Source: Bacillota bacterium
GTDB taxonomy: Bacteria; Bacillota; Sulfobacillia; JAIMAT01
Direction: 5' to 3'
DNA length: 64,000 nucleotides
NCBI GenBank assembly: GCA_029960955.1
Contig: JASBVS010000009.1
Span: forward strand, 22,645-86,644
Shown here: piece by piece, positions 6,441 through 62,474 of the stretch
Layout of the letters: every line of letters begins with the position of its first letter
Position numbering within the stretch: the first letter of the stretch is position 1
The notes under the pieces: generated by a model
Databases searched by the model: none
Seen by the model: the letters and a program-made list of their open reading frames with translations, nothing else
What the model was told of the DNA's origin: nothing
Made by a program: the position numbers and the translations under genes

Positions 6441-7680
6441 GGCGGATCCCCCGCGCGAGCGCCGCTTCGCCCGGGATGGCGCCCGCCTCCTGCAGCCGCT
6501 CCACCTCCGCCTCGCTGAAGCCGGCCTCGCGGAGGATCTCGAGCGTCTGCTGGCCGAGCAGGGGCGGCGGGCTGGCGATCCGCCCCGGGGTCCGGGAGAA
6601 CTTGACCGGCAGGCCGGTCGTCCGGATCCGGCCGGCCGTCGGGTGATCCATCTCCACCACCATCTCGCGCGCCGCCACCTGCGGGTGCGAGAGCGCCTCG
6701 CCCACGGTGAGGATGGGGCCGCAGGGCACGCCCGCGCGGTCGAGCGCCTCGGTCCACTCGGCCGAGGAGCGCGTCGCGAGGCGCGCGGCCAGGAGCGGGA
6801 TCAGCTCCGAGCGGTGCTCCACGCGCGCGGGGTTGGTGGCGAAGCGCGGGTCGCCGGCCAGCTCGGGGAGGCCGAGCGCCTCGCAGAAGGACCTCCACAG
6901 GCGGTCGTTGCCCACGGCCACCATGATGTGGCCGTCGGCGGTGGCGAAGGGCTGGTAGGGAACGATGTTGGGATGCGCCGAGCCCAGGCGCGAGGGGTTT
7001 CGCCCGGTGGCGAAGTAGGCGCCGGCGACGTAGGTCAGCCAGGCGATCTGGCCGTCCAGCAGCGAGACGTCCAGGTACTGGCCCTCTCCGGAGCGCTCGC
7101 GCTCGTAGAGCGCGGCGACGATGGCGAAGGCCGCCCACATCCCGGCGGTCAGGTCGGCGATGGACATGCCGTGCTTGGTCGGCTCCCCGTCCGGCTCGCC
7201 CGTGATCGACATCATGCCGCTCATGGCCTGGGCAACGGCGTCGAAGCCGGGCCGGTCCCGGTCCGGGCCGGTCTGGCCGAAACCGGAGATGGAGCAGTAG
7301 ACCAAGCGGGGATTGAACTGGCGCAGCTGCCGGTAGCCGATGCCCAGGCGGTCCGCAGTGCCGGGCCGGAAGTTCTCGATGACCACGTCCGCCGTCTCCG
7401 CGATACGGTAGACCACCCTCCGGCCCTCGGCGGTGGCCAGGTCGACGGCCAGGCTCCGCTTGTTCCGGTTGACGCTGAGAAAGTAGGCGCTCTCGCCGCC
7501 CAGGAAGGGGGGACCCCACTGGCGGGTGTCGTCCCCCGACCCGGGGCGCTCCACCTTGATCACGTCGGCTCCCCAGTCGGCCAGCATCATGGAACAGTAG
7601 GGACCCGAGAGGATGCGGGAGAAGTCGAGGACGCGAACGCCTTCCAGCGGTGGACGGCCGACGGTCGACATCCCATCCAT
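6430..7680 (-). CDS. CoA-transferase family III (CaiB/BaiF-type)
   Basis: Start [44 protein letters not shown] at 7680 with an AGGAGG SD 8 nt upstream. Conserved family III signature (VLDFS..L.GP, catalytic Asp region). 11-nt overlap with the downstream hydratase. Confidence 0.85.
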
Positions 7681-7717: not shown

Positions 7718-8452
7718 TCAGCCGGGAGGCCCGGAGTCCGGCTCGCTGCCCTGGAAGTGCCGAGCCACCCGGTCGCCGGCCTCGCGAACATGCTCCTCCA
7801 TGACGTCGGCGGCCCGGCCCGGGTCGCCCGAGCGGACGGCATCCCAGATGGCCCGGTGGTGCTGAAGGTAGCAGGCGGCGTTCCCCGGTATCGCGAGGCT
7901 CGCGTGGCGCGCGTAGACGATGCGATCCTGCAAGCCGGACATCAGCTGCGTGAGCGTCGCGTTGCCCGCGGCCGCGCAGATCGCGTCGTGGAAGGCGTTG
8001 GTCGCCTCGACGAGCGCCTCGCGCAGGTGCTCGGGCTCCGCCAGGGCGGCCTCGTGGCGGGAGAGGGCGGCCTCGGCCCTCTCCAGCGCCTCCAGCGCTT
8101 CGGCGCGCCCTTCCCGCACCGCGAGCGCGGCCTCGTAGGCGGCCAGGCGCTCCAGCGCGCGCCTGCAGGCATAGAGCTCCCGGATCTGGCGAAGGTTCAG
8201 GCGCGTCACCTGCAGCCCTCCGTCCACCCGGGTGACCAGCCCGTCCTGCTCCAGCTTCCGCAGGGCCTCCCGGACCGGCGCCCTGCTCACGTCCAGGTCC
8301 GCCGCCAGCCGGCTTTCCACCAGGCGTTCGCCGGGCCGGATGCGTTCGGTCACGATGGCGTGGCGGAGCCGTCGATAGACCTGCAGGTAGATGGGCTCCG
8401 CCTTCTCGATCGGACCGCCCGCCAGTGATCCCGAGTTCAGCGCGTTCTTCAC
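7718..8452 (-). CDS. GntR-family (FadR/FCD subfamily) transcriptional regulator
   Basis: GTG start at 8452 with a GGGGGTG SD. N-terminal wHTH IYLQVYRRLRHAIVTERIRPGERLVESRLAADLDVSRAPVREALRKLEQDGLV, C-terminal FCD-like helical domain. Confidence 0.85.
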   Translation of the reverse strand: MKNALNSGSLAGGPIEKAEPIYLQVYRRLRHAIVTERIRPGERLVESRLAADLDVSRAPVREALRKLEQDGLVTRVDGGLQVTRLNLRQIRELYACRRALERLAAYEAALAVREGRAEALEALERAEAALSRHEAALAEPEHLREALVEATNAFHDAICAAAGNATLTQLMSGLQDRIVYARHASLAIPGNAACYLQHHRAIWDAVRSGDPGRAADVMEEHVREAGDRVARHFQGSEPDSGPPG

Positions 8453-9883: not shown

Positions 9884-10058
9884 GCGGACTCACCTCCGGA
9901 CCGCGAGATGGGTGGCGACCCAGACGCGTGCCGACATCGATCGACGACCGACTGTCGACCGTCTACCACCTTGGGCTGCCGGATTCGTCGCGGACTTCGC
10001 TTCTCCTGCCGCAGATCAGCGGAAGATGCAACTTTGACGGTGCGTCACGTCGGAAAGA

Positions 10059-12056
<1,998 letters not shown>

Positions 12057-22057: not shown

Positions 22058-22684
22058 TTACAGCAGCCCCCGCCGCACGCCCTCCATCACCGCCTCGACG
22101 CGCCCCCGCACCTTCAGCTTGCGGAAGAGCGCCAGCACCCGGTCCTTGACGGCGCTCTCGCTGAGGAAGAGGCGGGCGGCGATCTCGCGGTTGGTGGCGC
22201 CCTCGGCGATGAGGCGGAGCAGCTGGAGCTCCTCCGGGGTGATCTCTTCCTCGTGACGGCGCTCCTTGACCGTCTCCATGAGGAGAGCGGCCGCCTGCGG
22301 CGCCAGGGCGGCGTCCCCCCGCACCACCGCCCGCACGGCCCGGACCAGGTCGAAGCCTTCCACGTCCTTGAGCAGGTAGCCCCGCGCGCCCGCCTCGACG
22401 CACTCCCGCACCAGCGTGTCGCTGATGAAGCTGCTCAGGATGAGCACAGCGGTGCCGGGGCAGCGGTCGCGCATCTGGCGGCAGAGCTCGATGCCGCTCA
22501 TGCCGCCCAGGCGGATGTCGACCACGGCCACGTCCGGCCCGCTGCGCGCCGCCGCGGCCACCGCCTCCTCGGCGGAGCCCACCGCGCCGACCACCTCCAG
22601 GTCCCGCTCGGCAGCCAGCAGTGCGGAGACGCCCTGCCGCACGATCTCGTGGTCATCCACCACCAGCACCCGTATCCGTGGCAA
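22058..22684 (-). CDS. NarL/LuxR-family response regulator
   Basis: REC domain (VLVVDDHEIVRQG...DVAVVDIRLGGMSG, conserved D and K) plus a C-terminal LuxR HTH (LLRLIAEGATNREIAARLFLSESAVKDRV). The start overlaps the 3' end of the upstream kinase gene by 32 nt. Confidence 0.9.
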   Translation of the reverse strand: MPRIRVLVVDDHEIVRQGVSALLAAERDLEVVGAVGSAEEAVAAAARSGPDVAVVDIRLGGMSGIELCRQMRDRCPGTAVLILSSFISDTLVRECVEAGARGYLLKDVEGFDLVRAVRAVVRGDAALAPQAAALLMETVKERRHEEEITPEELQLLRLIAEGATNREIAARLFLSESAVKDRVLALFRKLKVRGRVEAVMEGVRRGLL

Positions 22685-23852
22685 CGCGGACCTCCCCCGG
22701 CGGGCACCGCCCGGGCTCCAGCGGCGCCCAGACGCGCAGCACGCAGCCGCCGTCGACGCCGGCGCGCAGCTCGGCGCCCCCTCCCAGCCGCCCGGCCAGC
22801 CGGCGGATACCGGCCAGGCCGAAGCGCTGTCCGCGGCCGGCCTGCCGCAGGGCGCCGGCGTCCGGGCCGACGCCGTCGTCCTGCACCGTCAGCCGGACGG
22901 ACGAGCCGTCGACGGCCAGGTTGACCACCGCCATGCGGGCGCGCGCGTGCTTGGCCACGTTGGTCAGCGCCTCCCGCGCCGCCCGGTGGATCAGCTCCCG
23001 CACCGGCGCGGTCACCCGGTGGACCGGACCCGTGACGATGAGGCCCACCTCGAAGCCGAATTGCGCCTTGAACTCCTCGGTGAGCGAGGTGAGGAGCTCG
23101 TAGAGGCCGGCTTCCTCCGGCAGGCCGCCCCGCTCGTGGAGCTCGGCGATGGCCGCGCGGACGGCGGCGGAGCCCCGGGAAGCGAGGGCTGCGATGGAGG
23201 CGAGCCGCTCCCGCTGGTCCTCGGGCAGCAGCTCGCGCAGGCGCTCGGCCTCGAGGCCGATGCGGAAGAAGATCTGCGCGACGGTGTCGTGGAGCTCCAT
23301 GGCCAGCCGCTGCCGCTCCCGCAAGACCGCCAGCTCCTCGGCCTGCTGGTAGAGGCGGGCGTTGTGGATGGCGACCGCCGCGTGCGCCGCGAAGGCCACC
23401 ATCAGTTCCTCGTCCTCGCGGCTGAAGGGGTGCCCGCCCGTCAGGTTGGCGACGAAGAGCGTGCCCAGGATCTGCTCCTGGAAGCGGAGCGGCACGCCCA
23501 GGAAGGGTCCCACCGGCGGGTGGCCCGGCGGCGTCCCCACCGCCAGCGGGTGGCTGGGGACGTCGTCCACACGGAGCGGGCAGCCGGTCTTGAGCGGCAG
23601 GTTGAAGAGCCCCGCCCCGGTGGGGTAGTGGGCGGGCGGCGTCTCCCAGCCGGAGACCCAGAAGCCGCCGTACCGGTCGGGCTCGTCCTCGTCGAGCACG
23701 AGCAGCCCGCTGATGTCGGCGCTGCAGAGGTCGCGGGCGCTGTCGACCACCGTCTGCAGAAGAACGCCCAGGTCGAGCTGCGAGGCGAGCAGCGAGCTCA
23801 TCTCGAGGAGGGTCGCGAGCCGGCGCGCCTTCGCCTCGGTGCCCATCCTCAC
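22653..23852 (-). CDS. Soluble GAF-domain sensor histidine kinase (HisKA_3 / NarX-DegS type)
   Basis: No transmembrane segments. N-terminal GAF, H-box ELHDTVAQIFF, HATPase_c motifs (EALTNVAKHA, VQDDGVG). The GTG at 23852 overlaps the stop of the upstream xdhC gene (GTGA). Confidence 0.85.
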   Translation of the reverse strand: MRMGTEAKARRLATLLEMSSLLASQLDLGVLLQTVVDSARDLCSADISGLLVLDEDEPDRYGGFWVSGWETPPAHYPTGAGLFNLPLKTGCPLRVDDVPSHPLAVGTPPGHPPVGPFLGVPLRFQEQILGTLFVANLTGGHPFSREDEELMVAFAAHAAVAIHNARLYQQAEELAVLRERQRLAMELHDTVAQIFFRIGLEAERLRELLPEDQRERLASIAALASRGSAAVRAAIAELHERGGLPEEAGLYELLTSLTEEFKAQFGFEVGLIVTGPVHRVTAPVRELIHRAAREALTNVAKHARARMAVVNLAVDGSSVRLTVQDDGVGPDAGALRQAGRGQRFGLAGIRRLAGRLGGGAELRAGVDGGCVLRVWAPLEPGRCPPGEVRVATDTGAGGG

Positions 23853-24952
23853 CGCCCCCCGAAGCCCGCCGCCCCGGCCCCGGAGCCGTCTCCGGCGGCC
23901 GCCGGCGGGGCGCCGCCGGGAAGATAGCGCTCCGGCTCCCGGAGGAAGCGCTGCCGGCAGGGCTCGCCGCAGAAGTAGAAGAGACCCCCTGCGTACTCGG
24001 CGCGCAGCGCCTGCGCGTCCACCTCCACCTGCATGCCGCAGACCGGGTCCTCGGCAACCGGCGGCGCCTGCCCGGGCTCGGCCTCCCGTCGCGGCGCGGC
24101 CCGCTCGGCCCGGCGCCGCTCCGCCACCAGCTCGGCCAGGATGGAGAGCGCGATCTCCTCCTGGGTGGCCGCGCCGATGTCGAGGCCGGCGGGGTTGCGG
24201 ATGCGAGCCAGCTGCGCTTCCTCCAGCCCCCAGCCCGCGAGCACCTCGCGGACGGCCCGGGCCCGCCGGCGGCTGGCCACGAGCCCCACGTAGCGCGCCT
24301 CCGTGCGCAGCGCCAGGGCCAGCGCCTCCTCGTCGCAGATGCCGGCCGAGGCGACCACCACGTAGGCGGGCCGGTCGCGGACCAGCTCCGGCAGCGCCTC
24401 GAGCCCCGGCGGCCGGCCGTCCCCCCGGGGGGCGGCGGGCGCGGCGGAGCCGGGCGCCTCCTGCGCCGGCTCGCCCCGCCCGGGGAGCGCCGCCACGTCG
24501 AAGCCCACCGTCTCGCCCATGCGGACGAGGGCGCGCGTCAGCGGCGTCTCGCCGACGACGACCAGCCGGGGCGGGGCCACCCGGGGCTCGATGAAGACCT
24601 CCATGGCGCCGCCGCTGGGGCAGGTGAGCGCCACGGCCGCCTCCTCCCCCTCCGCGACGCCGCTCTCCGCGGGGAGGGGCGTCGCTTCCTCGCGCGTCGC
24701 CAGCCGGAGAAGGCGCGGCCGGCCGGAGCGGATGGCCGCCAGCGCCTCGCGGCGGACCGCCGACTGGGAGCAGGCACCGCCCACCCAGCCGGTCATCCGC
24801 CCGTCGGCGGTGACCACCGCCCGGTCGCCCACGCGGGCGGAGACGGGGGCCCGGCGCGCGACCACCGTGGCCACGGCGTACGGTTCGCCGCGGGCCTCCA
24901 GCTCGTCGACGAGTCGGATCAGCTCCTCGCCGCCCAACGCCTGCCCGATCAA
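23849..24952 (-). CDS. XdhC/CoxI-family Mo-cofactor insertion chaperone fused to a C-terminal YHS (TRASH-like) metal-binding domain
   Basis: N-terminus MIGQALGGEELIRLVDELEARGEPYAVATVV (XdhC_CoxI) followed by an XdhC Rossmann-like region. The C-terminal 45 aa, DPVCGMQVEVDAQALRAEYAGGLFYFCGEPCRQRFLREPERY, match the YHS-domain consensus (DPVCGM..YYFCS..C). Confidence 0.8.
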   Translation of the reverse strand: MIGQALGGEELIRLVDELEARGEPYAVATVVARRAPVSARVGDRAVVTADGRMTGWVGGACSQSAVRREALAAIRSGRPRLLRLATREEATPLPAESGVAEGEEAAVALTCPSGGAMEVFIEPRVAPPRLVVVGETPLTRALVRMGETVGFDVAALPGRGEPAQEAPGSAAPAAPRGDGRPPGLEALPELVRDRPAYVVVASAGICDEEALALALRTEARYVGLVASRRRARAVREVLAGWGLEEAQLARIRNPAGLDIGAATQEEIALSILAELVAERRRAERAAPRREAEPGQAPPVAEDPVCGMQVEVDAQALRAEYAGGLFYFCGEPCRQRFLREPERYLPGGAPPAAAGDGSGAGAAGFGGR

Positions 24953-24959
24953 GGCCGGA

Positions 24960-25424
24960 TCACCCCGCCTCGCCCGCCGGCTCCGCCTCCAGCTCGCGCC
25001 GGATCGCGCCGAACATCTGCTCCACCACCTTGCGCGCCTGCCCCTCCAGGAGCCGCCCCCCCACGGTGGCCAGGGTGCCGCTCACCGAGGCTTCCGCCTG
25101 CCAGGCCACCTCCGTCTGCCCGTCCACGGGCGTCAGGCGGGCCGAGCTCCGGACCGTCAGGCCGCTTCCCAGGCCGCTCCCCTGGATGGAGATGCGGGCC
25201 TCGGCGTCGTCCTCCCCCGGCTCCAGGGCGACGTCCAGGCGGAGGCGCCCCCGCACCGGACCGACGCCCACCCGCACGTGGGCCGTGAAGTGGGCCTCGT
25301 CCGCCACCTCCAGCTCCTGCAGGTCGGGCAGGCAGCGACCCACCCGTTCCGGGGCGAGGAGGAAGGCGCGGACCTCCTCCCGGCGCCGGCGGATGCTCTC
25401 GCTCCCCTCGAAGCGCATGTTCAC
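24960..25424 (-). CDS. coxG: Carbon monoxide dehydrogenase subunit G (CoxG, SRPBCC fold)
   Basis: 154-aa SRPBCC/CoxG-family protein (MRFEGSESI...VGGRLLEGQARKVVEQMF), immediately downstream of coxL. Confidence 0.8.
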   Translation of the reverse strand: MNMRFEGSESIRRRREEVRAFLLAPERVGRCLPDLQELEVADEAHFTAHVRVGVGPVRGRLRLDVALEPGEDDAEARISIQGSGLGSGLTVRSSARLTPVDGQTEVAWQAEASVSGTLATVGGRLLEGQARKVVEQMFGAIRRELEAEPAGEAG

Positions 25425-25430
25425 CGCCGC

Positions 25431-27775
<2,345 letters not shown>

Positions 27776-27779
<4 letters not shown>

Positions 27780-28318
27780 GGGACCATCCCTCCCCTGGCC
27801 GCGCTGGCCGCGCCGGCCGCGCCCTGGCCCGCGGACACCGGCTCGGCCGCGCCGCGCATCGCCCGCGCCGCCTCCTGGATCGCCCTGACGATGTTCTGGT
27901 AGCCGGTGCAGCGGCAGAGGTTGCCGGAGATGGCGCGGCGGATCTCCTCCTCGCCCGGATCGGGCCGGCGCTCGAGGAGCGCCGCCCCGGTCATGAGCAT
28001 GCCGGGCGTGCAGTAGCCGCACTGCAGCCCGTGCTGCTCCCAGAAGGCCTGCTGCAGCGGGTGGAGCTCGCCCTCGCGCGCCAGCCCCTCCACGGTGGTG
28101 ACGGCATGCCCCTCGGCCTGGACGGCGAAGAGCGTGCACGACTTGACCGGGCGCCCGTCCAGGAGGACCGTGCAGGCGCCGCAGCTGGTCGTGTCGCAGC
28201 CCACGTGCGTCCCGGTCAGGCCCGCCTCCTCGCGGATGAAGTGGACGAGAAGCCTCCTGGGCTCCACGACGCCGGTATACGGCTGCCCGTTGATGGTCAG
28301 GGTCAGCTCCCGCTTCAC
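27776..28318 (-). CDS. coxS: CO dehydrogenase small (2Fe-2S) subunit
   Basis: GTG at 28318 ([16 protein letters not shown]) with a GGGGGAGG SD. Plant-type and second [2Fe-2S] cysteine motifs ([24 protein letters not shown]). Confidence 0.9.
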
Positions 28319-28341
28319 TCCTCTCGCCTCCCCCTCGCGGC

Positions 28342-29214
28342 TCACGCAGCCAGGGCGCGCTCGGCCGCCCGGGCCAGCGCCCGGACGGTCAGGATCCGCA
28401 CCATGTCGCGCTTGTACGCCTCCGAGCCGCGCGTGTCGGCCACCGGCGAGGAAGCCGCCGCCGCCAGCTCCCCCGCCCTCTCCAGCACCTCCGGCTCGAA
28501 GCGCTTCCCCGCGAGGAACGCCTCCGCCTCGCGGGCGCGGAGCGAGGTGGGGCCGACGGCGCAGAGGCCGACGCCCGCGGCCGTGCACCTCCCATCGGCG
28601 TCGAAGGCGACCTGGACGCCCACGGCGGCGGTGGCGAAGTCGCCCACCTTCCGCTCGATCTTCAGGTAGGCGCCGCCGCTGCGCGGCGCGGGCGCCGGCA
28701 CCCGGATCTCGGTCAGGATCTCGTCGGGCGAGATGGCGGTGGTGAAGGTGTCGACCAGGAAGTCCTCCAGCGCAAGCTCCCGCTCGCCCCCCGGACCCGT
28801 CAGCACCACCCGCGCCCTGGCCGCCAGCAGCGCCGCCCCCCAGTCCCCCGCGGGGTCGGCGTGGACCAGGGAGCCGGCGACCGTCCCCAGGTTGCGGACC
28901 AGCGGGTCGGCGACCACGCTCGCCGTCTCCGCCAGGAGCGGGTAGCGGTCGCGGATGAGCGGCGAGGCCTCCATCTCCGCGTGGCGCACCAGCGGGCCGA
29001 TGCGCAGCACCCCTTCCTCCTCCGCCAGGAAGTCGAGCCCGGGGATCCGCTGGATGTCGACGAGCACCCCGGGCCGCGCCAGGCGGAAGCGCATGGCCGG
29101 GATCAGGCTCTGGCCTCCCGCGATCACCTTGGCCTCCTCGCCGTGGCGCCTCAGCAGCTCCACGGCCTCCGGAAGCGAGCCGGGCGCGGCATAATCGAAG
29201 GCGGCCGGGATCAC
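28342..29214 (-). CDS. coxM: CO dehydrogenase medium (FAD-binding) subunit
   Basis: GTG at 29214 ([21 protein letters not shown], the canonical CoxM start) with AGGAGGGAGGG upstream. FAD-binding domain AGGQSLIP. 290 aa. Confidence 0.85.
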
Positions 29215-29229
29215 ATGCCCTCCCTCCTC

Positions 29230-29268
29230 GCCTCTATTTGAATAAAAGTTACTTTCATTAGCAAGGCG
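29230..29268. promoter_or_regulatory. AT-rich promoter island between divergent coxM and the TIGR00725 gene
   Basis: CTCTATTTGAATAAAAGTTACTTTCATTAGCAAGG has about 25% GC in a 75% GC genome. On the minus strand it reads TTGCTA-N17-TCAAAT, about 20 nt upstream of the coxM GTG and SD. Confidence 0.4.
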
Positions 29269-29353
29269 GGCGGGGAGCCGAACGGGCGGAGTTGGCGCCA
29301 CCGTTCGGTGGGGCGGCCGCCCGCCGGTCGGAGGCGCCGGAGGTGACCTTCCT

Positions 29354-29887
29354 GTGGAGGAGGAGGCGGCCGGCCGGGGCGCGGCTCCGCTGCGCATCGC
29401 CGTGGCCGGCGGGCACGAGTGCACCCCGGAGGAGGCGGCCCTCGCCAGGCGGGCCGGCGAGCTCCTGGCCGAGGCGCGTGCCGTGGTGCTCTGCGGGGGT
29501 TACGGCGGCGTGATGGCGGCGGTGGCCGAGGGCGCGCGGTCGGCGGGCGGCCTCGTGGTCGGCCTGCTGGCGGGCGACTCCCTCGCGGGCGCGGCGCCCG
29601 ACCTGACCGTCGCCCTTCCCACCGGCCTGGGCGAGATGCGGAACGCCCTCCTGGTCCGCGCCGGCGACGCCCTCCTGGCCATCGGTGGCGGTTTCGGAAC
29701 GCTCTCCGAGATCGCCCTGGCGGTGCGGACGGGCAAGCCCGTGGTCGGGCTGGCCACCTGGGAGTTTCGCGACCCCCACGGCGGCCCGGACCCCGTCCTG
29801 CGCGCCAGCGGAGTGGAGGAGGCGGTGGCCGCGGTCCTGCGCCTGGCGGCGGCCGTGCGCGGGCCGGCGACGCCGCCCGGCGCCTAG
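29354..29887 (+). CDS. TIGR00725 / LOG-like Rossmann-fold nucleotide-binding protein
   Basis: IAVAGGHECTPEEAALARRAGELLAEARAVVLCGGYGGVMAAVAEGARSAGGLVVGLLAG matches the TIGR00725 pattern (v.GGs..GvMea...Ga...GG..iGi). Divergent from coxM. Confidence 0.65.
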   Translation: MEEEAAGRGAAPLRIAVAGGHECTPEEAALARRAGELLAEARAVVLCGGYGGVMAAVAEGARSAGGLVVGLLAGDSLAGAAPDLTVALPTGLGEMRNALLVRAGDALLAIGGGFGTLSEIALAVRTGKPVVGLATWEFRDPHGGPDPVLRASGVEEAVAAVLRLAAAVRGPATPPGA

Positions 29888-43736: not shown

Positions 43737-46097
43737 CTAGCCGCGCCGCGCGGCTTCCGCTTCGTGCGGGCCCGTGCCCGCGCCCTCCCCCGGCGCGCGG
43801 CCGGCCTCCTCCACCCAGGCGCGCACCCGCGCGGGGGTCATGGGGAGGCGCCGGACCACCACGCCCAGAGGCGCCAGCGCGTCCTCCACGGCGTTGGCCA
43901 GAGCAGCCAGCGCCGGGATGGTGCCGCCCTCGCCCGCCCCCTTGGCGCCCAGCGGGTTGAGGGGCGTGGGCGACTCGAGGTGGGAGATCTCCACCGGCGG
44001 CATCTCCTCGGTGGAAGGAAGCGCGTACTCCGCCAGCGTGCTGGTGAGGAGCTGTCCCTGCTCGTCGTAGACCAGCTCCTCCAGCAGCGCGCCGCTGAGG
44101 CCGTACATGACCCCGCCGCGGACCTGTCCCTCCACCAGCGGCGGGTGGATCATCCGCCCGCAGTCGTGTGCGACCACGTAGCGCAGGACACGGACGCCGC
44201 CGGTCTCCGGGTCCACCTCCACCACCGCCACGTGGGCGCCGTCGGCGAAGGTGGGGGCGCCGGGCGCGAAGGCGACGGTGGAGGCGAGGTCGACCAGCGC
44301 CCGGCCCCCTTCCTGCGCCTCGCCCGAGCGCAGGCGCCGCGCCAGTTCCGCCAGCGAGAGCCGCAGGCCCGGCACGCCGCGCACGCGGACGTCGCCCCCC
44401 TCCAGGAGCAGGTCTTCCTCCGCCACCTCCAGGAGGCGGCTGGCGGCCGCCAGGATGCGGCGGCGCAGCTCCACCGCCGCCTCGTGGACCGCGCTGCCGC
44501 CCATGGCCACTCCCCGGCTGCCGAAGGTGCCGATGCCGGCCGGCACCTGCGCGGTGTCGCTGGCGACCACGGTGACGCGCTCCGCATCGACGCCCAGCGC
44601 GTCGGCCGCCACCCGGGCGAAGGTGGTCTCGTGCCCCTGTCCCTGGGCCGGCGAGCCGCTGGCCACCACCACCCGCCCGCTGGGGTCGAGGCGGGCGGTG
44701 GCCGCCTCGAAGGGGCCGCCGCCGGTGTCCTCCACGTAGACGGCCACGCCGACGCCCAGCCAGCGGCCTTCCTGGCGCGCCCGCGCCTGCTCCGCGCGCC
44801 AGCCCGCCACGTCCGCCCTCTCCACCGCCTGGCGGAGCGCCGCCGGGTAGTCGCCCGAGTCGTAGACCACCCGGCCCGGACCGCCCCGGTAGGGGAGGCC
44901 GGTGGCGTAGGGCATCTCTTCGGGCCGGATCAGGTTCCGCTGGCGCAGCTCGACGGGGTCCATCCCCAGCCGCCGCGCCAGCCGGTCCATCATCCGCTCC
45001 ATGACGAAGTTCCCCTGCGGCCGGCCGGCGCCGCGGTAGGGCCCGATGGGCACCTTGTTGGTGAAGACCTCCAGCACGCGGCAGCGGTAGGCCGGCAGAT
45101 GATAGGGCCCCGGCATGGTGGTGGCGGTGACCAGCCCGATGGGGACGCGGGGCGGGAAGGCGCCCACGTCGCTGAGCAGCACGTCGTCCAGGGCGAGGAG
45201 CCGCCCGTCCCGGCGGGCCGCCAGGCGGACCCGGTGGATCTGCTCGCGCTCGTGGTTGGTGGAGAGGAAGTGCTCCCGGCGATCCTCCAGGAAGCGGACC
45301 GGCCTCCCCGTCTCCAGCGCGAGCCAGGCGGCCAGCAGGTCCTCGGGGTAGACGCCGTTCTTCACCCCGAAGCCGCCCCCCACGTCGGGCGTCACCACGC
45401 GCACCTGCCGCTCCTCCAGCCCCAGCGCCGCGGCCAGCGCCGCGCGCAGCTGGTGCGGCGCCTGGTGCGCCGCCCAGACGGTCAGCCCGCCGCCCGCCTC
45501 GGGCACCGCCAGGATCGCCCTGCCCTCCAGCGGCTGCGCCGTCGCCCGCCCGATGGCCAGCTCCTCCTCCACCACCACCTCGGCCTCGGCCAGGGCGGCC
45601 TCCACCTCGCCGTAGCCGACGGTCCGCTCCGAGCAGAGGTTGGAGGGGCGCGAGAGCAGCGCGGGCGGCGCCCCTTCCTCCAGCGCCCGCCGCGCGTCGC
45701 CCACCACGGGCAGCGGCTCGTACTCCACCTCCGCCTCCTCCAGCGCGTCCTCGGCCACGTAGCGGTCGCGGGCCAGCACCGCCGCCAGAGGCTGGCCCGC
45801 GTAGGCCACCTCCTCCACGGCCAGGGCGGGCTGGACCGTCGCCCGCTGGAGCGCCGGCGCCCGCCGCGCCAGGCGCCGCCCGTCCAGCGCCAGCGCCACC
45901 CCCGCCACGGCCTCGGCGCGCCCCAGATCCACCCGCCGCACCCGCGCGTGGGCGTACGGGCTGCGCAGCACCGCCAGCGCCAGCGTGCCGGGCACCTCCA
46001 GGTCGCCGACGAAGCGGCCGCGCCCCGTCAGCAGGCGCCGGTCCTCCCTGCGCGGCAGGCCGTCGCCCGACCCGGTCGCCTCCCGCTCGCTCCGCAT
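43737..46097 (-). CDS. Xanthine-dehydrogenase-family molybdopterin-binding large subunit (form-II CoxL-like) with no adjacent FeS or FAD subunits
   Basis: ATG at 46097 with a [14 protein letters not shown]-terminus RREDRRLLTGRGRFVGDL, Mo-binding loop PYRGAGR, GQGHETTFA and the C-terminal dimerisation region. 786 aa. The 1072-aa ORF-track version is over-extended. Confidence 0.85.
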   Translation of the reverse strand: MRSEREATGSGDGLPRREDRRLLTGRGRFVGDLEVPGTLALAVLRSPYAHARVRRVDLGRAEAVAGVALALDGRRLARRAPALQRATVQPALAVEEVAYAGQPLAAVLARDRYVAEDALEEAEVEYEPLPVVGDARRALEEGAPPALLSRPSNLCSERTVGYGEVEAALAEAEVVVEEELAIGRATAQPLEGRAILAVPEAGGGLTVWAAHQAPHQLRAALAAALGLEERQVRVVTPDVGGGFGVKNGVYPEDLLAAWLALETGRPVRFLEDRREHFLSTNHEREQIHRVRLAARRDGRLLALDDVLLSDVGAFPPRVPIGLVTATTMPGPYHLPAYRCRVLEVFTNKVPIGPYRGAGRPQGNFVMERMMDRLARRLGMDPVELRQRNLIRPEEMPYATGLPYRGGPGRVVYDSGDYPAALRQAVERADVAGWRAEQARARQEGRWLGVGVAVYVEDTGGGPFEAATARLDPSGRVVVASGSPAQGQGHETTFARVAADALGVDAERVTVVASDTAQVPAGIGTFGSRGVAMGGSAVHEAAVELRRRILAAASRLLEVAEEDLLLEGGDVRVRGVPGLRLSLAELARRLRSGEAQEGGRALVDLASTVAFAPGAPTFADGAHVAVVEVDPETGGVRVLRYVVAHDCGRMIHPPLVEGQVRGGVMYGLSGALLEELVYDEQGQLLTSTLAEYALPSTEEMPPVEISHLESPTPLNPLGAKGAGEGGTIPALAALANAVEDALAPLGVVVRRLPMTPARVRAWVEEAGRAPGEGAGTGPHEAEAARRG

Positions 46098-46209
46098 GCG
46101 CTCCCCTCCCCTGTCGCCTTCGCTTCGACTCGCCTTCCCGGCGGCCTCGTGGCCAGCCAATACCACGGCCGCCGCCCGCTCCCCTGCCGCCGGGCCGGCG
46201 GCGAAGGAG

Positions 46210-57733: not shown

Positions 57734-58630
57734 TCACCCGATCAGGCCCGCGCCTCTCAGCGCCGCCTCCACCACCTGCTGCGCGGCCTCCGGAAGGGCG
57801 GCCAGCGGCGGCCGGCACTCGCCCACCGGGAAGCCCGTCCGCCCCAGCGCCCACTTGACCGGGATCGGGTTGGTGGTGACGAAGAGCGCCTTGTGCAAAG
57901 GAAGGAGCTCCAGGTGGATGCGCCGCGCCTCCTCCGCCTCGCCGCGCCGGAAGGCGTCGATCATGGCCGCCAGCCGCCCGGCCACCAGGTGGCCGGAGAC
58001 GCTGATCACGCCCACCGCGCCCACCGCCAGCATGGGCAGCGTCAGCGAGTCGTCGCCGCTGTAGACGGCCAGGCGCCCCTCCGTCCGCCGGACGATCTCC
58101 GACGTCTCGTCGAAGTTGCCCGAGGCCTGCTTGAGCGCGACGATGTTGGGCACGTCCTCCGCCAGCCGCACCACGGTCTCCGGCGCCAGGTTGGTGGCGG
58201 TCCGCCCCGGCACGTTGTAGAGCATGACGGGCAGCGAGACGCTCTCGGCCACGCTGCGGAAGTGGCGGTAGAGGCCCTCCTGCGGCGGCTTGTTGTAGTA
58301 GGGCGTCACCAGCATGAGGCCGTCGACGCCCCAGCGCTCCGCCATCCGGCTGCGCCGGATGCTGGCGCGGGTGTCGTAGCTGCCGGTGCCGGCGTAGACC
58401 GGCACCCGCCCGCCCGCCGCCTCCCGGACGGCCGCCACCAGGCGCTCCAGCTCCTCGTCGGAGAGCGTAGGCGACTCGGCGGTGCTCCCGCCGATCAGGA
58501 AGCCGTCGGCGCCCTCCGCCATCAGCTTCCTGGCCAGTTCGGCGGCCCGCTCCGGCACCAGCTCGCCCCTCTCGTCGAACGGGCTGACCAGGGCGACCGT
58601 CACCCGCCCCGGCAGCCTCGGCTCGGCCAT
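57734..58630 (-). CDS. dapA: 4-hydroxy-tetrahydrodipicolinate synthase
   Basis: Start MAEPRLPGRVTVALVSPF at 58630. Conserved TGSYDT, Schiff-base K in VALKQASG, YNVPGRT. Confidence 0.9.
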   Translation of the reverse strand: MAEPRLPGRVTVALVSPFDERGELVPERAAELARKLMAEGADGFLIGGSTAESPTLSDEELERLVAAVREAAGGRVPVYAGTGSYDTRASIRRSRMAERWGVDGLMLVTPYYNKPPQEGLYRHFRSVAESVSLPVMLYNVPGRTATNLAPETVVRLAEDVPNIVALKQASGNFDETSEIVRRTEGRLAVYSGDDSLTLPMLAVGAVGVISVSGHLVAGRLAAMIDAFRRGEAEEARRIHLELLPLHKALFVTTNPIPVKWALGRTGFPVGECRPPLAALPEAAQQVVEAALRGAGLIG

Positions 58631-58661
58631 GCTCAAGCCCCCCTTCCTCGCCTCCAGAGCT

Positions 58662-59933
58662 TCAGACCGGCCGGCGGTCACCCAGTTCGAAGGCCTCGTG
58701 AAGCGCCCGCACCGCCTCCTCCATCTGCTCCCGCCGCACCAGGCAGGAGATGGTGACGTGCGAGTCGGCCGTCTGCAGGATCTCGATGCCCCGTTCGGCC
58801 AGCGCCTCCACCACGCGCGCCATCACGCCCGGCAGCCCGCGCATGCCGGCCCCCACCACCGAGACCTTGGCGCAGCCGCGCACGAGCGAGACCTGGAAAC
58901 CTTCGGACTCCAGAATCTTTCGCGTCTTCTCGGCCTCCGCCTCCCGGACGATGAACGAGCGGCGCTCCGGCGAGACGTTGATCAGGTCGACGCTGACGCC
59001 CGCCTCGGCCAGCGGGCGGAAGATGCGGCGGTTGACGGTCCCGGAGTCGGCCGCCGGCGCGCCGCCGGCGCTCTCGCCCCGCGCCGGCGCGCCCTCCACC
59101 CGCACCAGGCACATGTCGGCCATGTGGGCGACGCCGGTGATGATGCGGCCGCCGTAGAGGTCGGCCCAGGCGCCGGCGTTCTCGAAGGCGTGGGTGATCA
59201 GCGTCCCCGGGCTGTCGGAGAAAGTGCTGCGGATGCGCAGGGGGACGTTCCCCTGCATGGCCAGCTCCACCGCGCGCGCGTGGACGATGCGGCTGCCCAG
59301 GTCCGCCATCTGCAGGACTTCCTCGTAGGTGAGGACGCGGAGCGTGCGCGCGTCGGGGACGATGCGCGGGTCGGCGGTCATCACGCCCTCGACGTCCGAG
59401 TAGATCTCCACCTCCTCGGCGCGGAGCGCCACGCCCAGCGCCGCCGCGGTGGTGTCGCTGCCGCCCCGCCCCAGCGTCGTCACGTCGCCGCCCTCCGTGA
59501 TGCCCTGGAAGCCGGTCACCACCGGCAGGAGGCCCTGCTCCAGCCGCTGCAGGAGCGGCGTCGGGTCGACGCGCAGGATGCGCGCGTCACCGAAGCGGTC
59601 GTCGGTCAGGATGCCGCTCTGCCAGCCGGTCAGCGTGACCGGCCGGCCGACGCCCTCCCGCCGCAGCGTGGCGGAGAGGATGACGGCCGAGATCACCTCG
59701 CCGCAGGAGATCATCAGGTCCTCCTCGCGGGGGTCGGGCTCCGGCTCGACGGCGCGCACCTGGTCGAGCAGCGTGTCGGTGGCGTACGGGTCGCCGCGCC
59801 TGCCCATGGCCGAGACGACCACCACCGGGTCGAGCCCCGCCGCCAGCGCGGAGCGGATGCGGCGGACGACGTGCGCCCGGCGCTCGCTGTCGGAGACGGA
59901 GGTGCCGCCGAACTTCTGCACGACGATGCGCAA
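58662..59933 (-). CDS. Aspartate kinase (DapG-like, with C-terminal ACT domains)
   Basis: TTG start at 59933 (MRIVVQKFGGTSV) with a GGGAGGAG SD 7 nt upstream. 423 aa. The ORF-track N-terminal extension overlaps asd out of frame. Confidence 0.9.
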   Translation of the reverse strand: MRIVVQKFGGTSVSDSERRAHVVRRIRSALAAGLDPVVVVSAMGRRGDPYATDTLLDQVRAVEPEPDPREEDLMISCGEVISAVILSATLRREGVGRPVTLTGWQSGILTDDRFGDARILRVDPTPLLQRLEQGLLPVVTGFQGITEGGDVTTLGRGGSDTTAAALGVALRAEEVEIYSDVEGVMTADPRIVPDARTLRVLTYEEVLQMADLGSRIVHARAVELAMQGNVPLRIRSTFSDSPGTLITHAFENAGAWADLYGGRIITGVAHMADMCLVRVEGAPARGESAGGAPAADSGTVNRRIFRPLAEAGVSVDLINVSPERRSFIVREAEAEKTRKILESEGFQVSLVRGCAKVSVVGAGMRGLPGVMARVVEALAERGIEILQTADSHVTISCLVRREQMEEAVRALHEAFELGDRRPV

Positions 59934-59953
59934 GGACGACTCCTCCCGTCGGC

Positions 59954-60976
59954 TCAGGGTCGTCCACTCCGGAGAAGGAGCTCCGCGATCTGGACGGCGT
60001 TGGTCGCCGCGCCTTTGCGCAGGTTGTCGGCCACGATCCAGAGGTCGAGCGCGCCCTCCAGGGCGAGGTCGGAGCGGATGCGCCCGACCCAGACCTCGTC
60101 GCGACCGGCGGCCCGGAGCGGCGTCGGGTACTCGCCCTCCTCCAGCGCGTCGGCCAGGCGGACGCCGGGCGCCGAGGCCAGGATCGCCCTCGCCTCCTCC
60201 GGGGCGAGCGGGCGGGAGGGCTGGAAGACGACCGACTCGCCGTGGCCGACGAAGACCGGGACGCGGACGGCGGTGGCGCTCAGGCGCAACCCGGGCAGGC
60301 CCAGGATCTTCCGGCTCTCGCGCAGGAGCTTCATCTCCTCGCGGGTGAAGCCGTCGCCCTCCAGGCGATCGCAATGCGGCAGCACGTTGAAGGCGATCGG
60401 GTGGGGGTAGGGGCTCGAGGGCGACCGTTCGGGCGTCCCGCCGCTCTGCCAGGCGCGCACCTCCAGCTCCAGCTCCTCCACCGCCTGCTGGCCGGTGCCC
60501 GAGACCGCCTGGTAGGTGGAGACCCAGACCCTTTCCACGCCCGCCTCGCGGATGAGCGGCGCCAGGGCCACCACCAGCTGGATGGTGGAACAGTTGGGGC
60601 TGGCGACGATCCCGCGGTGGTGATCCAGCGCCTCGGGGTTGACCTCCGGCACCACCAGCGGCACGTCCTCGGCCATGCGGAAGGCGTTGCTCTTGTCGAC
60701 CACCACCGCTCCGCGCCGGACGGCCTCGGGCGCCAGCTCCCGGCTGGCCGCGTCGCCCGCGGCGATGAAGACCAGATCCAGGCCGTCGAACCGCTCGGGG
60801 AGCGCTTCCTGGACCTCCAGTTCCCGGCCGAGGAAGCGGACGCGCCGGCCCGCCGACCGCTCCGTGGCCATGGGCCGCAGCTCGCCCACCGGGAAGCGCC
60901 GCTCCTCCAGCACCTCGAGCAGCGTGCGTCCGACCATGCCGGTGGCGCCGACGATCCCGACCCGGACTCCCTCCAA
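59954..60976 (-). CDS. asd: Aspartate-semialdehyde dehydrogenase
   Basis: TTG at 60976 with a GGGAGGT SD. N-terminal VRVGIVGATGMVGRTLLEVL, active-site NCSTI. 340 aa. Confidence 0.9.
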   Translation of the reverse strand: MEGVRVGIVGATGMVGRTLLEVLEERRFPVGELRPMATERSAGRRVRFLGRELEVQEALPERFDGLDLVFIAAGDAASRELAPEAVRRGAVVVDKSNAFRMAEDVPLVVPEVNPEALDHHRGIVASPNCSTIQLVVALAPLIREAGVERVWVSTYQAVSGTGQQAVEELELEVRAWQSGGTPERSPSSPYPHPIAFNVLPHCDRLEGDGFTREEMKLLRESRKILGLPGLRLSATAVRVPVFVGHGESVVFQPSRPLAPEEARAILASAPGVRLADALEEGEYPTPLRAAGRDEVWVGRIRSDLALEGALDLWIVADNLRKGAATNAVQIAELLLRSGRP

Positions 60977-60996
60977 CTCGCCGACCTCCCGTCTCC

Positions 60997-61596
60997 TCAC
61001 CGCTCGCCCGCCGGCCAGCCGCGCAGGAGCGGCTGCAGCTGCCGCCCCGCCAGCGCCGCCTCGACGGTCTCCGGGACCAGGTCGAGGTGCGCCACCAGCG
61101 AGTTCGGCTTGGCGAGCGGGTCGTCCTGGCCGAAAGGCACGAAATAGACGTTCTTGACGTTCAGCAGCCTTCCCAGGTTGACGGCGTTCAGCCCCAGCGC
61201 GTCGTTGGTCGTGATGCCCAGGACGACCGGGCGGCCGTTGCGGAGCTGCGCCTTGACCGCCATCGTCACCGCCGTGTCGTTGACGGCGCTGGCCAGCTTG
61301 GCCAGGGTGTTGCCCGTGCAGGGCACCACCGCCAGCACGTCCAGCGTCCGGTTGGGGCCGAAGGGCTCCACCTCCGGAATGGTGGTGAGCGGCTGGTGGC
61401 CGGTCGTCTCCACGACGCGCCGGTACCACGTCTCGGGATCGCCGTGCCGCGTGGCCGTGGTGGCCAGCGTCTGCGACAGGATGGGGATGATCTCGGCCCC
61501 CTCCGCCCGGAGCCGCTCCATCACCGGGAAGACGTGGGGCACCGTATGGTGCGAGCCCGTCAGGGCCCAGCCCACCGTCAAGCCCCGGAATCGCAT
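60997..61596 (-). CDS. spoVFB: Dipicolinate synthase subunit B (flavoprotein)
   Basis: ATG at 61596 with an AAGGGGGT SD. 199-aa flavoprotein fold (MRFRGLTVGWALTGSHHTVPHVFPVMERL...LAVVPCTGNTLAKLA). The ORF-track 494-aa version is an artefact. Confidence 0.85.
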   Translation of the reverse strand: MRFRGLTVGWALTGSHHTVPHVFPVMERLRAEGAEIIPILSQTLATTATRHGDPETWYRRVVETTGHQPLTTIPEVEPFGPNRTLDVLAVVPCTGNTLAKLASAVNDTAVTMAVKAQLRNGRPVVLGITTNDALGLNAVNLGRLLNVKNVYFVPFGQDDPLAKPNSLVAHLDLVPETVEAALAGRQLQPLLRGWPAGER

Positions 61597-61601
61597 GCAC
61601 C

Positions 61602-62474
61602 TTACCCCCTTTTGGACTCGGCCCGCAAGACCTCCAGGACCACCTCGGCCAGCGCCTCGCCGGCGCTGGCCGGCGCGTACCGCTCGGGAAGGGCGGGAAG
61701 GAGCCGGTAGCCCCCGGGCGGCCGCTCCCGCAGCGCGGGATGCAGACCGCCCGGCGCCGAGGCCAGGTCGAGCACCGGCAGCCCGGGGCGGACGGCGAAG
61801 AGCTCGGGCCCGAGGAGCGGCGCCGGCACGGTGTTGAAGAGGAGGTCGGCCCCCTCCGCGGCGGCCGCGGCCAGCGCCTCGACCGGCGCCGCCTCGTGGC
61901 CGTCGGCCCGCGCCTCCGCCCGCGCCGAGGCGGAGCGGGCAAGCACCAGCGTCCGCGCTCCGAGGGCCGCCAGCAACCTGGCGAGCGTCCTTCCTGTGCG
62001 CCCGTAGCCCAGGACGAGGGCGCGCGCGCCCCGGATCGTCCGCTCCAGCCGCTCCGCCGCCGCCACCAGCGCGCCTTCGGCGGTGGGCACGGCGTTCAGC
62101 CAGGCGAAGTCGTCCCGTTCCAGGAGGGGGATGAGCGGATGGTTCCGGGCGAGCGGTTCGAAGAGCGAGCGGGCCGGCCCCTCGGGCGGTCGCCCGAAGA
62201 GGAGAGGGGCGCCGGCAGGAAGCGCCCTCAGCAGGGCGCCCTCCAGCCTCCAGGCCGGCCGCCCCTCCTCCGCCACCTCCGGCGTCGCGCCGACGCTGGC
62301 CACCGGCAGGACGAGCGCCTGCACCCGCCCCAGCGCCCGCGTCGCGCCGGCCTCGTCCCAGCCGCTCGCGCGCCGGATCTCCAGGACCTCCAGGCCTTCC
62401 GCCCGCAGCCGCGCCGCCGCGGCGGCCTCCCTGCGGCCTCCGCCCAGGAAGGCGACCCGCTGCCACCGTCCCAC
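61602..62474 (-). CDS. spoVFA: Dipicolinate synthase subunit A
   Basis: GTG start with a GGGAGGCGGTGAGCG SD. Two Rossmann-like halves (VAFLGGG..., ALVLGYGRTGRTLARLL). 290 aa, directly upstream of spoVFB. Confidence 0.8.
   Translation of the reverse strand: MGRWQRVAFLGGGRREAAAAARLRAEGLEVLEIRRASGWDEAGATRALGRVQALVLPVASVGATPEVAEEGRPAWRLEGALLRALPAGAPLLFGRPPEGPARSLFEPLARNHPLIPLLERDDFAWLNAVPTAEGALVAAAERLERTIRGARALVLGYGRTGRTLARLLAALGARTLVLARSASARAEARADGHEAAPVEALAAAAAEGADLLFNTVPAPLLGPELFAVRPGLPVLDLASAPGGLHPALRERPPGGYRLLPALPERYAPASAGEALAEVVLEVLRAESKRG

Follow-up and report, generated by a model that had tools for sequence, protein, structure and literature searches.

Does the two-component system that is encoded at the end of a carbon monoxide (CO) dehydrogenase operon serve this operon, and which signal could it sense? 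The question is raised by seven genes on the minus strand of a 64-kb stretch of a Bacillota metagenome-assembled genome (MAG), positions 22,645 to 86,644 of contig JASBVS010000009.1, which was analysed at its full length and is called the window here. The genes for the three subunits of an aerobic CO dehydrogenase, coxM, coxS and coxL, are followed by coxG, a coxF homologue and the genes of a GAF histidine kinase and a NarL/DevR-type response regulator. The enzyme genes are those of an ordinary form-I cox locus, and it is the GAF two-component system that deserves attention. Since the pair was found beside CO dehydrogenase genes (molybdenum or nickel type) in every informative relative, it probably acts as a switch that senses a gas and governs CO oxidation, of a kind not described before.

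The kinase-regulator pair adjoins CO dehydrogenase genes of two types

The gene neighbourhoods were surveyed with an alignment of the kinase, which was scanned against 185,579 species genomes. This yielded 72 loci that were mapped by tblastn, and six exact-sequence look-ups supplemented them. The kinases fell into three types with Phe, Gly or Tyr as the distal residue of the predicted haem pocket. The Phe type comprised the window and the loci L004-L022, L076-78 and L085-87. Form-I cox genes were adjacent in 18 cases (the window, L004-L010, L013, L015, L017, L019, L020, L022, L076, L077, L085 and L087) and cooF-cooS in six (L012, L014, L016, L018, L021 and L086), and two contigs were too short. 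The cooS gene codes for the catalytic subunit of the anaerobic Ni-CO dehydrogenase, and the CooS proteins scored 744-749 bits with TIGR01702, above the cut-off of 478. Among the 24 informative loci, none of the Phe type was located away from CO dehydrogenase genes. The pair occurred in three gene orders in these loci: downstream in the same orientation, upstream and divergent, or upstream in the same orientation.

When the kinases were placed in a neighbour-joining tree, the Phe type formed one clade in which the coo-linked kinases were nested among the cox-linked ones, and the distal Phe was present in every member of this CO dehydrogenase-linked clade. The three loci with a distal Gly, which belong to Thermomicrobiales (L002, L023 and L024), all adjoined form-I cox. 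The DevS-like single-GAF relatives with a distal Tyr (L079-L084) were found next to Usp/PFOR or unrelated genes and showed no link to CO dehydrogenase. An earlier note on this DNA, made from the sequence alone, had proposed such a survey and had reasoned that the pair would not be cox-specific if relatives carried it beside unrelated operons. This was not seen, as the Phe-type pair was adjacent to CO dehydrogenase genes in 24 of 24 informative loci. Judged by its neighbourhoods, the sensor pair is specific for CO dehydrogenase and follows the substrate, although the two enzymes are not homologous and have opposite needs for oxygen.

In the Anaerolineales/Chloroflexota MAGs the kinase-regulator pair was located directly upstream of cooF-cooS with tandem dyads in between, at 7947-7985 in L012, 1916-1945 in L016, 11795-11830 in L018 and 3150-3200 in L086. 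In L018, genes for a CooC-like ATPase and for an antiporter subunit of the Mrp/complex-I-like kind were also present nearby, which suggests that this neighbourhood is a CO dehydrogenase/hydrogenase module. L012 contained an assembly gap between the regulator gene and cooS, recognised as a run of N flanked by duplicated sequence at ~8220-8320, and the spacing there is uncertain. In the Thermomicrobiales MAG L024, two single-GAF kinases were encoded a few kb apart near coxMSL (7162-7620 and 10001-11182), one with a DevS-like distal Tyr and the other with Gly.

The sensor kinase is related to DevS and has a single GAF domain

The kinase is encoded at 22653..23852 on the minus strand and has 399 amino acid residues (aa); the NCBI protein starts at the ATG at 23846 and has 397 aa. 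Pfam assigned the domains GAF_2, HisKA_3 and HATPase_c. No transmembrane segment was found by hydropathy, with a maximal Kyte-Doolittle value of 1.32 over 19 residues, which confirmed the previous view of a soluble, cytoplasmic kinase. The single GAF domain (residues 26-163) is directly followed by HisKA_3, without a tandem of GAF-A and GAF-B. A phmmer search of the PDB matched the GAF region (residues 26-171) to GAF-A of DevS from Mycobacterium tuberculosis (2W3D/2Y79) with 1e-28 and ~40% identity, and to DosT with 7.5e-22. In the AlphaFold2 model of the kinase (pLDDT 86), Foldseek gave TM scores of 0.84-0.86 to the GAF-A domains of DosS and DosT (2W3D, 2VZW), and the kinase core superposed on DesK. 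The residue His111 in the motif PPGHPP aligned with His149, the proximal haem ligand of DevS (PMC4082495), and was invariant in 29 homologues. The regulator, encoded at 22058..22684 on the minus strand with 208 aa, contains the Pfam domains Response_reg and GerE, and its best match in the PDB was DevR of M. tuberculosis (3C3W, 8e-43).

The pair resembles the DevS(DosS)/DosT-DevR(DosR) system of M. tuberculosis in its haem-type GAF domain (~40% identity, TM 0.85) with the proximal His and in the combination of a soluble kinase, which has a HisKA_3 and HATPase core, with a NarL/GerE-type partner. The sensors DevS and DosT bind CO, NO and O2 (PMC4082495). In contrast to DevS, which has GAF-A and GAF-B in ~570 aa, the window kinase has one GAF domain in 399 aa, and the distal Tyr (Tyr171 in DevS, Tyr169 in DosT) is absent. 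Also, the genetic link of the window pair is to CO dehydrogenase operons and not to a dormancy regulon. Because the tandem GAF domains and the distal Tyr are missing, the sensor pair is best classed as a variant, a relative of DevS/DevR and not a member of this group. The proposal of the earlier note that the GAF domain places CO oxidation under the control of a small ligand has been much strengthened, both by the DevS/DosT-type haem domain and by the synteny with CO dehydrogenase in all informative loci.

Tandem dyads precede the CO dehydrogenase genes

Most of the kinase loci carried CC-N4-GG palindromes upstream of coxM or cooF/cooS, for example ACACCCGATCGGGTGT, CCCTCCGATCGGAGGG and GATCCGAACGGATC, usually in two copies with 22-23 bp from centre to centre. 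In the window, two candidate sites for the regulator were found upstream of coxM, both read on the minus strand: the distal dyad CCACCGAACGGTGG at 29298..29311 (core 29301-29308) and the proximal dyad GCCCGTTCGGCT at 29276..29287 (core 29278-29285). They are 23 bp apart (29278/29301) and represent two of only 7 matches to CCGWWCGG in the 64 kb. The dyad pair is not known to resemble the Dev box.

The enrichment was assessed with a strict, training-free test in 25 loci, in which pairs of CCNWWNGG with a distance of 22-23 bp were counted. Ten pairs were observed and 1.5 were expected, and all ten were located directly upstream of coxM or cooF/cooS. The control loci had 1 pair in 686 kb, and none was found in the loci of Oligotropha carboxidovorans OM5 and Deinococcus. 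L087 contained one further pair. When perfect palindromes were counted, the enrichment was only ~3-fold.

Between the dyads and coxM an AT-rich block of 35 bp, TTGCTAATGAAAGTAACTTTTATTCAAATAGAGG (29228..29262, minus strand), stands out against the 74% GC of its surroundings and is followed by the GGAGG-rich ribosome-binding site GGAGGGAGGG. The block holds an 11-bp palindrome, AAAGTAACTTT, and the hexamer TTGCTA, and the centre of the proximal dyad is ~20 bp upstream of this hexamer. The block is a candidate promoter; as it has no match to the sigma-70 consensus, it may be a non-canonical promoter or the site of a second regulator.

The cox genes of the window

All seven reading frames of the cox locus are unbroken and have a strong coding signal in the G+C of third codon positions (GC3). 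Their products are identical to the NCBI proteins MDI3298116 to MDI3298122, where CoxM is MDI3298122. The genes have one orientation, on the minus strand, and Pfam returned the domains that had been claimed for them. The medium subunit gene coxM (28342..29214, GTG start) codes for an FAD-binding protein of 290 aa with the domains FAD_binding_5 (5e-49) and CO_deh_flav_C (5e-22), which is 54% identical to CoxM of Thermomicrobium roseum. The [2Fe-2S] small subunit of 180 aa is encoded by coxS (27776..28318); it matched Fer2_2 (8.6e-35) and Fer2 and is 72% identical to CoxS of T. roseum. The gene coxL (25431..27779) codes for the large subunit of a form-I Mo-Cu CO dehydrogenase with 782 aa, followed by coxG (24960..25424) for an SRPBCC protein of 154 aa (Pfam COXG, 2e-30) and the coxF homologue (23849..24952) for a protein of 367 aa with XdhC_CoxI, XdhC_C and YHS domains (YHS 2.5e-12).

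The CoxL product scored 1252 bits with the NCBIfam equivalog TIGR02416 for the large subunit of aerobic CO dehydrogenase, above the cut-off of 991. Its loop VAYRCSFR, previously read as form-I, aligned with the residues 384-391 of OM5 CoxL with Cys388, Arg387 and Phe390 kept, so that the alignment and the TIGR02416 score bear out this reading. Equivalents of Cys388, Gln240 and Glu763 are retained. The identity of CoxL is 67% to the T. roseum protein and 59% to that of O. carboxidovorans, and 59-67% across form-I proteins including Deinococcus, compared to at most 44% with form-II-like proteins. With the form-I loop, the match to TIGR02416 and the CoxM and CoxS subunit genes adjoining coxL, the locus is a form-I (Mo-Cu) CO dehydrogenase operon, coxM-S-L-G-F, that looks functional.

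The earlier note had stated that all junctions of the locus overlap. Overlaps of the GTGA type were indeed found at coxS/coxL and at coxF/kinase, and kinase and regulator overlap by 32 nt, as also in L076, L085 and L087, but the remaining three junctions are gaps of 23, 6 and 7 nt. A terminator scan of the locus gave no signal above chance, and the region that follows the regulator gene showed no significant folding (z = -0.95). It is plausible from this arrangement that the seven genes form one transcription unit.

The genes on both sides are unrelated. A phosphoesterase gene follows downstream, and on the upstream side there are a divergent SLOG/LOG-like gene and the gene of a LacI-type regulator. 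The SLOG cluster4 / LOG-like (lysine-decarboxylase-like) gene at 29354-29887 on the plus strand is divergent from coxM, and the two share a 139-bp intergenic region containing dyads. A second large subunit of the xanthine dehydrogenase family is encoded at 43740-46103 on the minus strand. It is an orphan with 33-37% identity to CoxL, the form-II-like loop PYRGAGR and no adjoining FAD or Fe-S subunit genes; the reading frame continues to 46955, which adds an upstream extension of ~283 aa without a Pfam match. The window has a G+C content of ~74% and carries nearly all of its genes on the minus strand. In the kinase-alignment scan, Symbiobacteriaceae and Symbiobacterium MAGs were the closest species-level relatives. 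At 57737-62474 on the minus strand, a dpaA/dpaB-like pair is followed by asd, the aspartokinase gene dapG and dapA. Such a dipicolinate (spore) cluster is typical of endospore-forming Bacillota and fits the Bacillota label and the Symbiobacteriaceae placement of the MAG.

CoxF is encoded next to the cox genes, and CoxD and CoxE were not found in the window

The genes coxD, coxE and coxF had been reported missing from the window. A tblastn search with CoxD and CoxE of O. carboxidovorans and Deinococcus against the 64 kb returned nothing at E<1e-3, and Pfam scans, which covered essentially all genes of the window with GC3 support, detected neither a MoxR-type AAA protein (CoxD) nor a VWA_CoxE protein (CoxE). 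The absence of coxD and coxE from the window was thus upheld, and that of coxF was wrong. The XdhC+YHS protein is 34% identical to CoxF of OM5 (2e-35), its best match, compared to 2e-14 for CoxI, and its gene occupies the position of coxF in the relatives L003-L010. By homology and position the protein is a CoxF homologue, so coxF is present in the window.

The nearest relatives that carry coxD and coxE are L004-L007, L085 and L087, with 53-60% kinase identity. In these loci the genes are arranged as coxM-S-L-G-F(YHS)-[nucleotidyltransferase]-coxD-coxE-XdhC2-kinase-regulator, and the block that is missing from the window is exactly coxD-coxE-XdhC2. The order coxG-coxF-kinase-regulator was repeated in two closer lineages from independent metagenomes with 69-72% kinase identity, and the missing block is therefore no assembly accident. 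A cox cluster without adjacent coxD and coxE, which had been presented as exceptional, was also found in T. roseum (L002), and the loci L008, L013, L020 and L023 are equally minimal. T. roseum is a proven CO oxidiser (PMC2615216), and its accessory genes, coxE included, are reported in a separate operon (PMC6776052). Either the genes for CoxD and CoxE are located at another site of the genome, like those of T. roseum, or this clade can do without the two proteins.

The T. roseum megaplasmid locus is similar to the window in that coxMSL and an XdhC+YHS gene have a GAF kinase and a regulator encoded nearby but no coxD/E next to them, and that two perfect CCCTCCGATCGGAGGG-type dyads are found 23 bp apart upstream of its coxM. 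It differs in that kinase and regulator are encoded upstream, with two other genes before coxM, and that coxG is absent; its kinase, with 34% identity, falls into another clade, that with a distal Gly. Compared to the coxBCMSLDEFGHIK cluster of OM5, the window has the same order of coxM-S-L, a CoxL with 59% identity and the same loop, and CoxF and CoxG homologues. Unlike OM5, it contains no coxD, coxE, coxI, coxK or MHYT genes (coxB/C/H), coxG precedes coxF and the CoxF protein has a YHS domain.

This C-terminal domain shows a YHS/TRASH-like Cys motif, DPVCGM...FC(C)xxC, encoded at 23918-24052 of the window. The motif was found in nearly every cox locus fetched from Bacillota, Chloroflexota and Deinococcus (L002-L023, L076-78, L085 and L087), whereas CoxF of O. 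carboxidovorans has none. CoxF has been proposed to supply copper (PMC4240915), and the predicted YHS domain fits this role. No literature linking YHS with CoxF was found. The recurrent fusion of CoxF with YHS is an independent genomic support for the proposed copper delivery.

Proposed mechanism and alternative explanations

On balance, we favour the reading that the DevS/DevR-type pair is a haem two-component system dedicated to the CO dehydrogenase operon, with CO as the likeliest signal. The single GAF domain of the kinase would bind haem via His111. A diatomic gas, most probably CO, would bind to the haem iron and alter the autophosphorylation at His188 of HisKA_3, and the phosphoryl group would be handed to the NarL/DevR-type regulator. 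The regulator would then bind to the two CC-N4-GG dyads, which have a distance of 23 bp and immediately precede the AT-rich candidate promoter region of coxM, and would control the whole coxMSLGF-kinase-regulator operon. This would include the sensor genes and hence an autoregulation. CO is the most parsimonious signal, since it is the only evident factor that the loci of the Mo and the Ni enzymes have in common.

Several observations weigh against this reading. Haem binding by the GAF domain is deduced from homology and one conserved His. The distal pocket differs from that of DevS, as Tyr171 is replaced by Phe133 and the positions of Glu87 and His89 are Leu in the window kinase. The engineered Y171F mutant of DosS was active only in the ligand-free state, and any ligand left its kinase off (PMC4082495). 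The way in which DevS responds is therefore not transferable, and the direction of the kinase response and the sign of the cox regulation cannot be inferred from DevS. O2, NO or the redox state may be the signal of the kinase instead of CO. For the operator, an expectation-maximisation (EM) matrix was trained on the same upstream regions, and only the strict pair count is independent of the training; the trained matrix ranked the window's own dyads low, and L019, L020, L022 and L023 have one dyad or degenerate dyads. A sigma-70 scan of the AT-rich block showed no match to the consensus. Further, since coxD and coxE were not located, the CO-oxidising activity of the organism is predicted only.

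An O2 or redox sensor for hypoxia like DosS/DosT, which would make the CO dehydrogenase genes part of a programme for persistence or dormancy and not subject to control by CO, is unlikely in our view. It would agree with the homology of both kinase and regulator to DevS/DevR. Usp genes are a hallmark of the DosR regulon, and they adjoin the distal-Tyr relatives. In T. roseum, CO dehydrogenase is up-regulated about two-fold when nutrients are limiting, and its expression is high even if no CO is added (PMC6776052). However, the kinase clade is linked to an O2-dependent Mo enzyme as well as to an O2-sensitive Ni enzyme with the same operator layout, and CO is the only obvious variable that these loci share. 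The Tyr that forms a hydrogen bond to O2 in DevS/DosT and is used there for O2 discrimination (PMC4082495) is missing in the window kinase and is replaced by Phe throughout the CO dehydrogenase-linked clade, and no Usp or other dormancy genes were found in the linked loci. A pair that serves an unrelated regulon and follows coxF by chance is very improbable. The link between the regulator and the cox promoter is a predicted one, and coxF could contain a separate promoter for the kinase gene. Against this, all 24 informative loci are adjacent to CO dehydrogenase genes, in three different gene orders, and the conserved tandem dyads were found only at CO dehydrogenase promoters. The synteny and the shared operator contradict the different regulon that the earlier note had left as an alternative.

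The lack of coxD and coxE in the window bears on two further explanations. If the cluster were a decaying or inactive cox copy, the loss of coxD-coxE-coxI would leave CoxL without sulfur and copper and the sensor pair as a leftover. In O. carboxidovorans, CoxD and CoxE mutants have an inactive enzyme (PMC4240915), and L004-L007, L085 and L087 have coxD-coxE-XdhC2 between coxF and the kinase gene where the window has none. Among the best 120 homologues of CoxD, no close protein with an MDI329x accession, and hence from the source MAG, was found; this is a weak negative, as all were at least 60% identical, the list was saturated, many entries had no accession and the MAG may be incomplete. We consider a decaying copy improbable, as the seven frames are intact with a strong GC3 signal, the active-site residues of CoxL are kept and T. 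roseum oxidises CO although its cox cluster has no adjacent coxD/E. Also, the same gene order in two lineages with 69-72% kinase identity argues for purifying selection. A further reading is quite doubtful, in which the small Bacillota clade of the window, L076 and L077 would have an active [CuSMoO2] site with no CoxD or CoxE in the whole genome and, in addition, a Phe-type haem kinase that is truly CO-selective and of an undescribed class. In this case, CoxF-YHS alone would supply the copper, and the general sulfur-transfer machinery would stand in for the MoxR/VWA pair.

Relation to known CO-responsive regulators

The dedicated haem two-component system that we favour would share its role, the gas-dependent control of cox or coo operons, with CooA, RcoM and CoxC. 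RcoM likewise occurs beside CO dehydrogenase genes of the aerobic and of the anaerobic type (PMC11347149 and references in it). CooA (haem-CRP), RcoM (haem-PAS-LytTR) and CoxC (MHYT-LytTR) are one-component regulators, whereas the window encodes a kinase-regulator pair with a predicted GAF haem domain and a GerE DNA-binding domain. The only CO-responsive regulators that are named in papers from 2024-2026 are CooA, RcoM, CorQR and CoxC (PMC11347149, PMC11942997, PMC13077300), and many CO oxidisers have none of the four (PMC13077300). In the openly searchable literature, no paper was found that connects a GAF kinase with cox or coo. The sensor pair is apparently a conserved regulator family for CO dehydrogenase operons that was not previously described.

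The pair is tied to operons of the Mo- and Ni-type CO dehydrogenases in Bacillota and Chloroflexota, with a diagnostic exchange of Tyr to Phe and a predicted operator. The Phe-type pair would be a natural experiment on the ligand discrimination by the haem pocket of DevS, and it would add a new, testable class of sensors for the oxidisers of atmospheric and geothermal CO.

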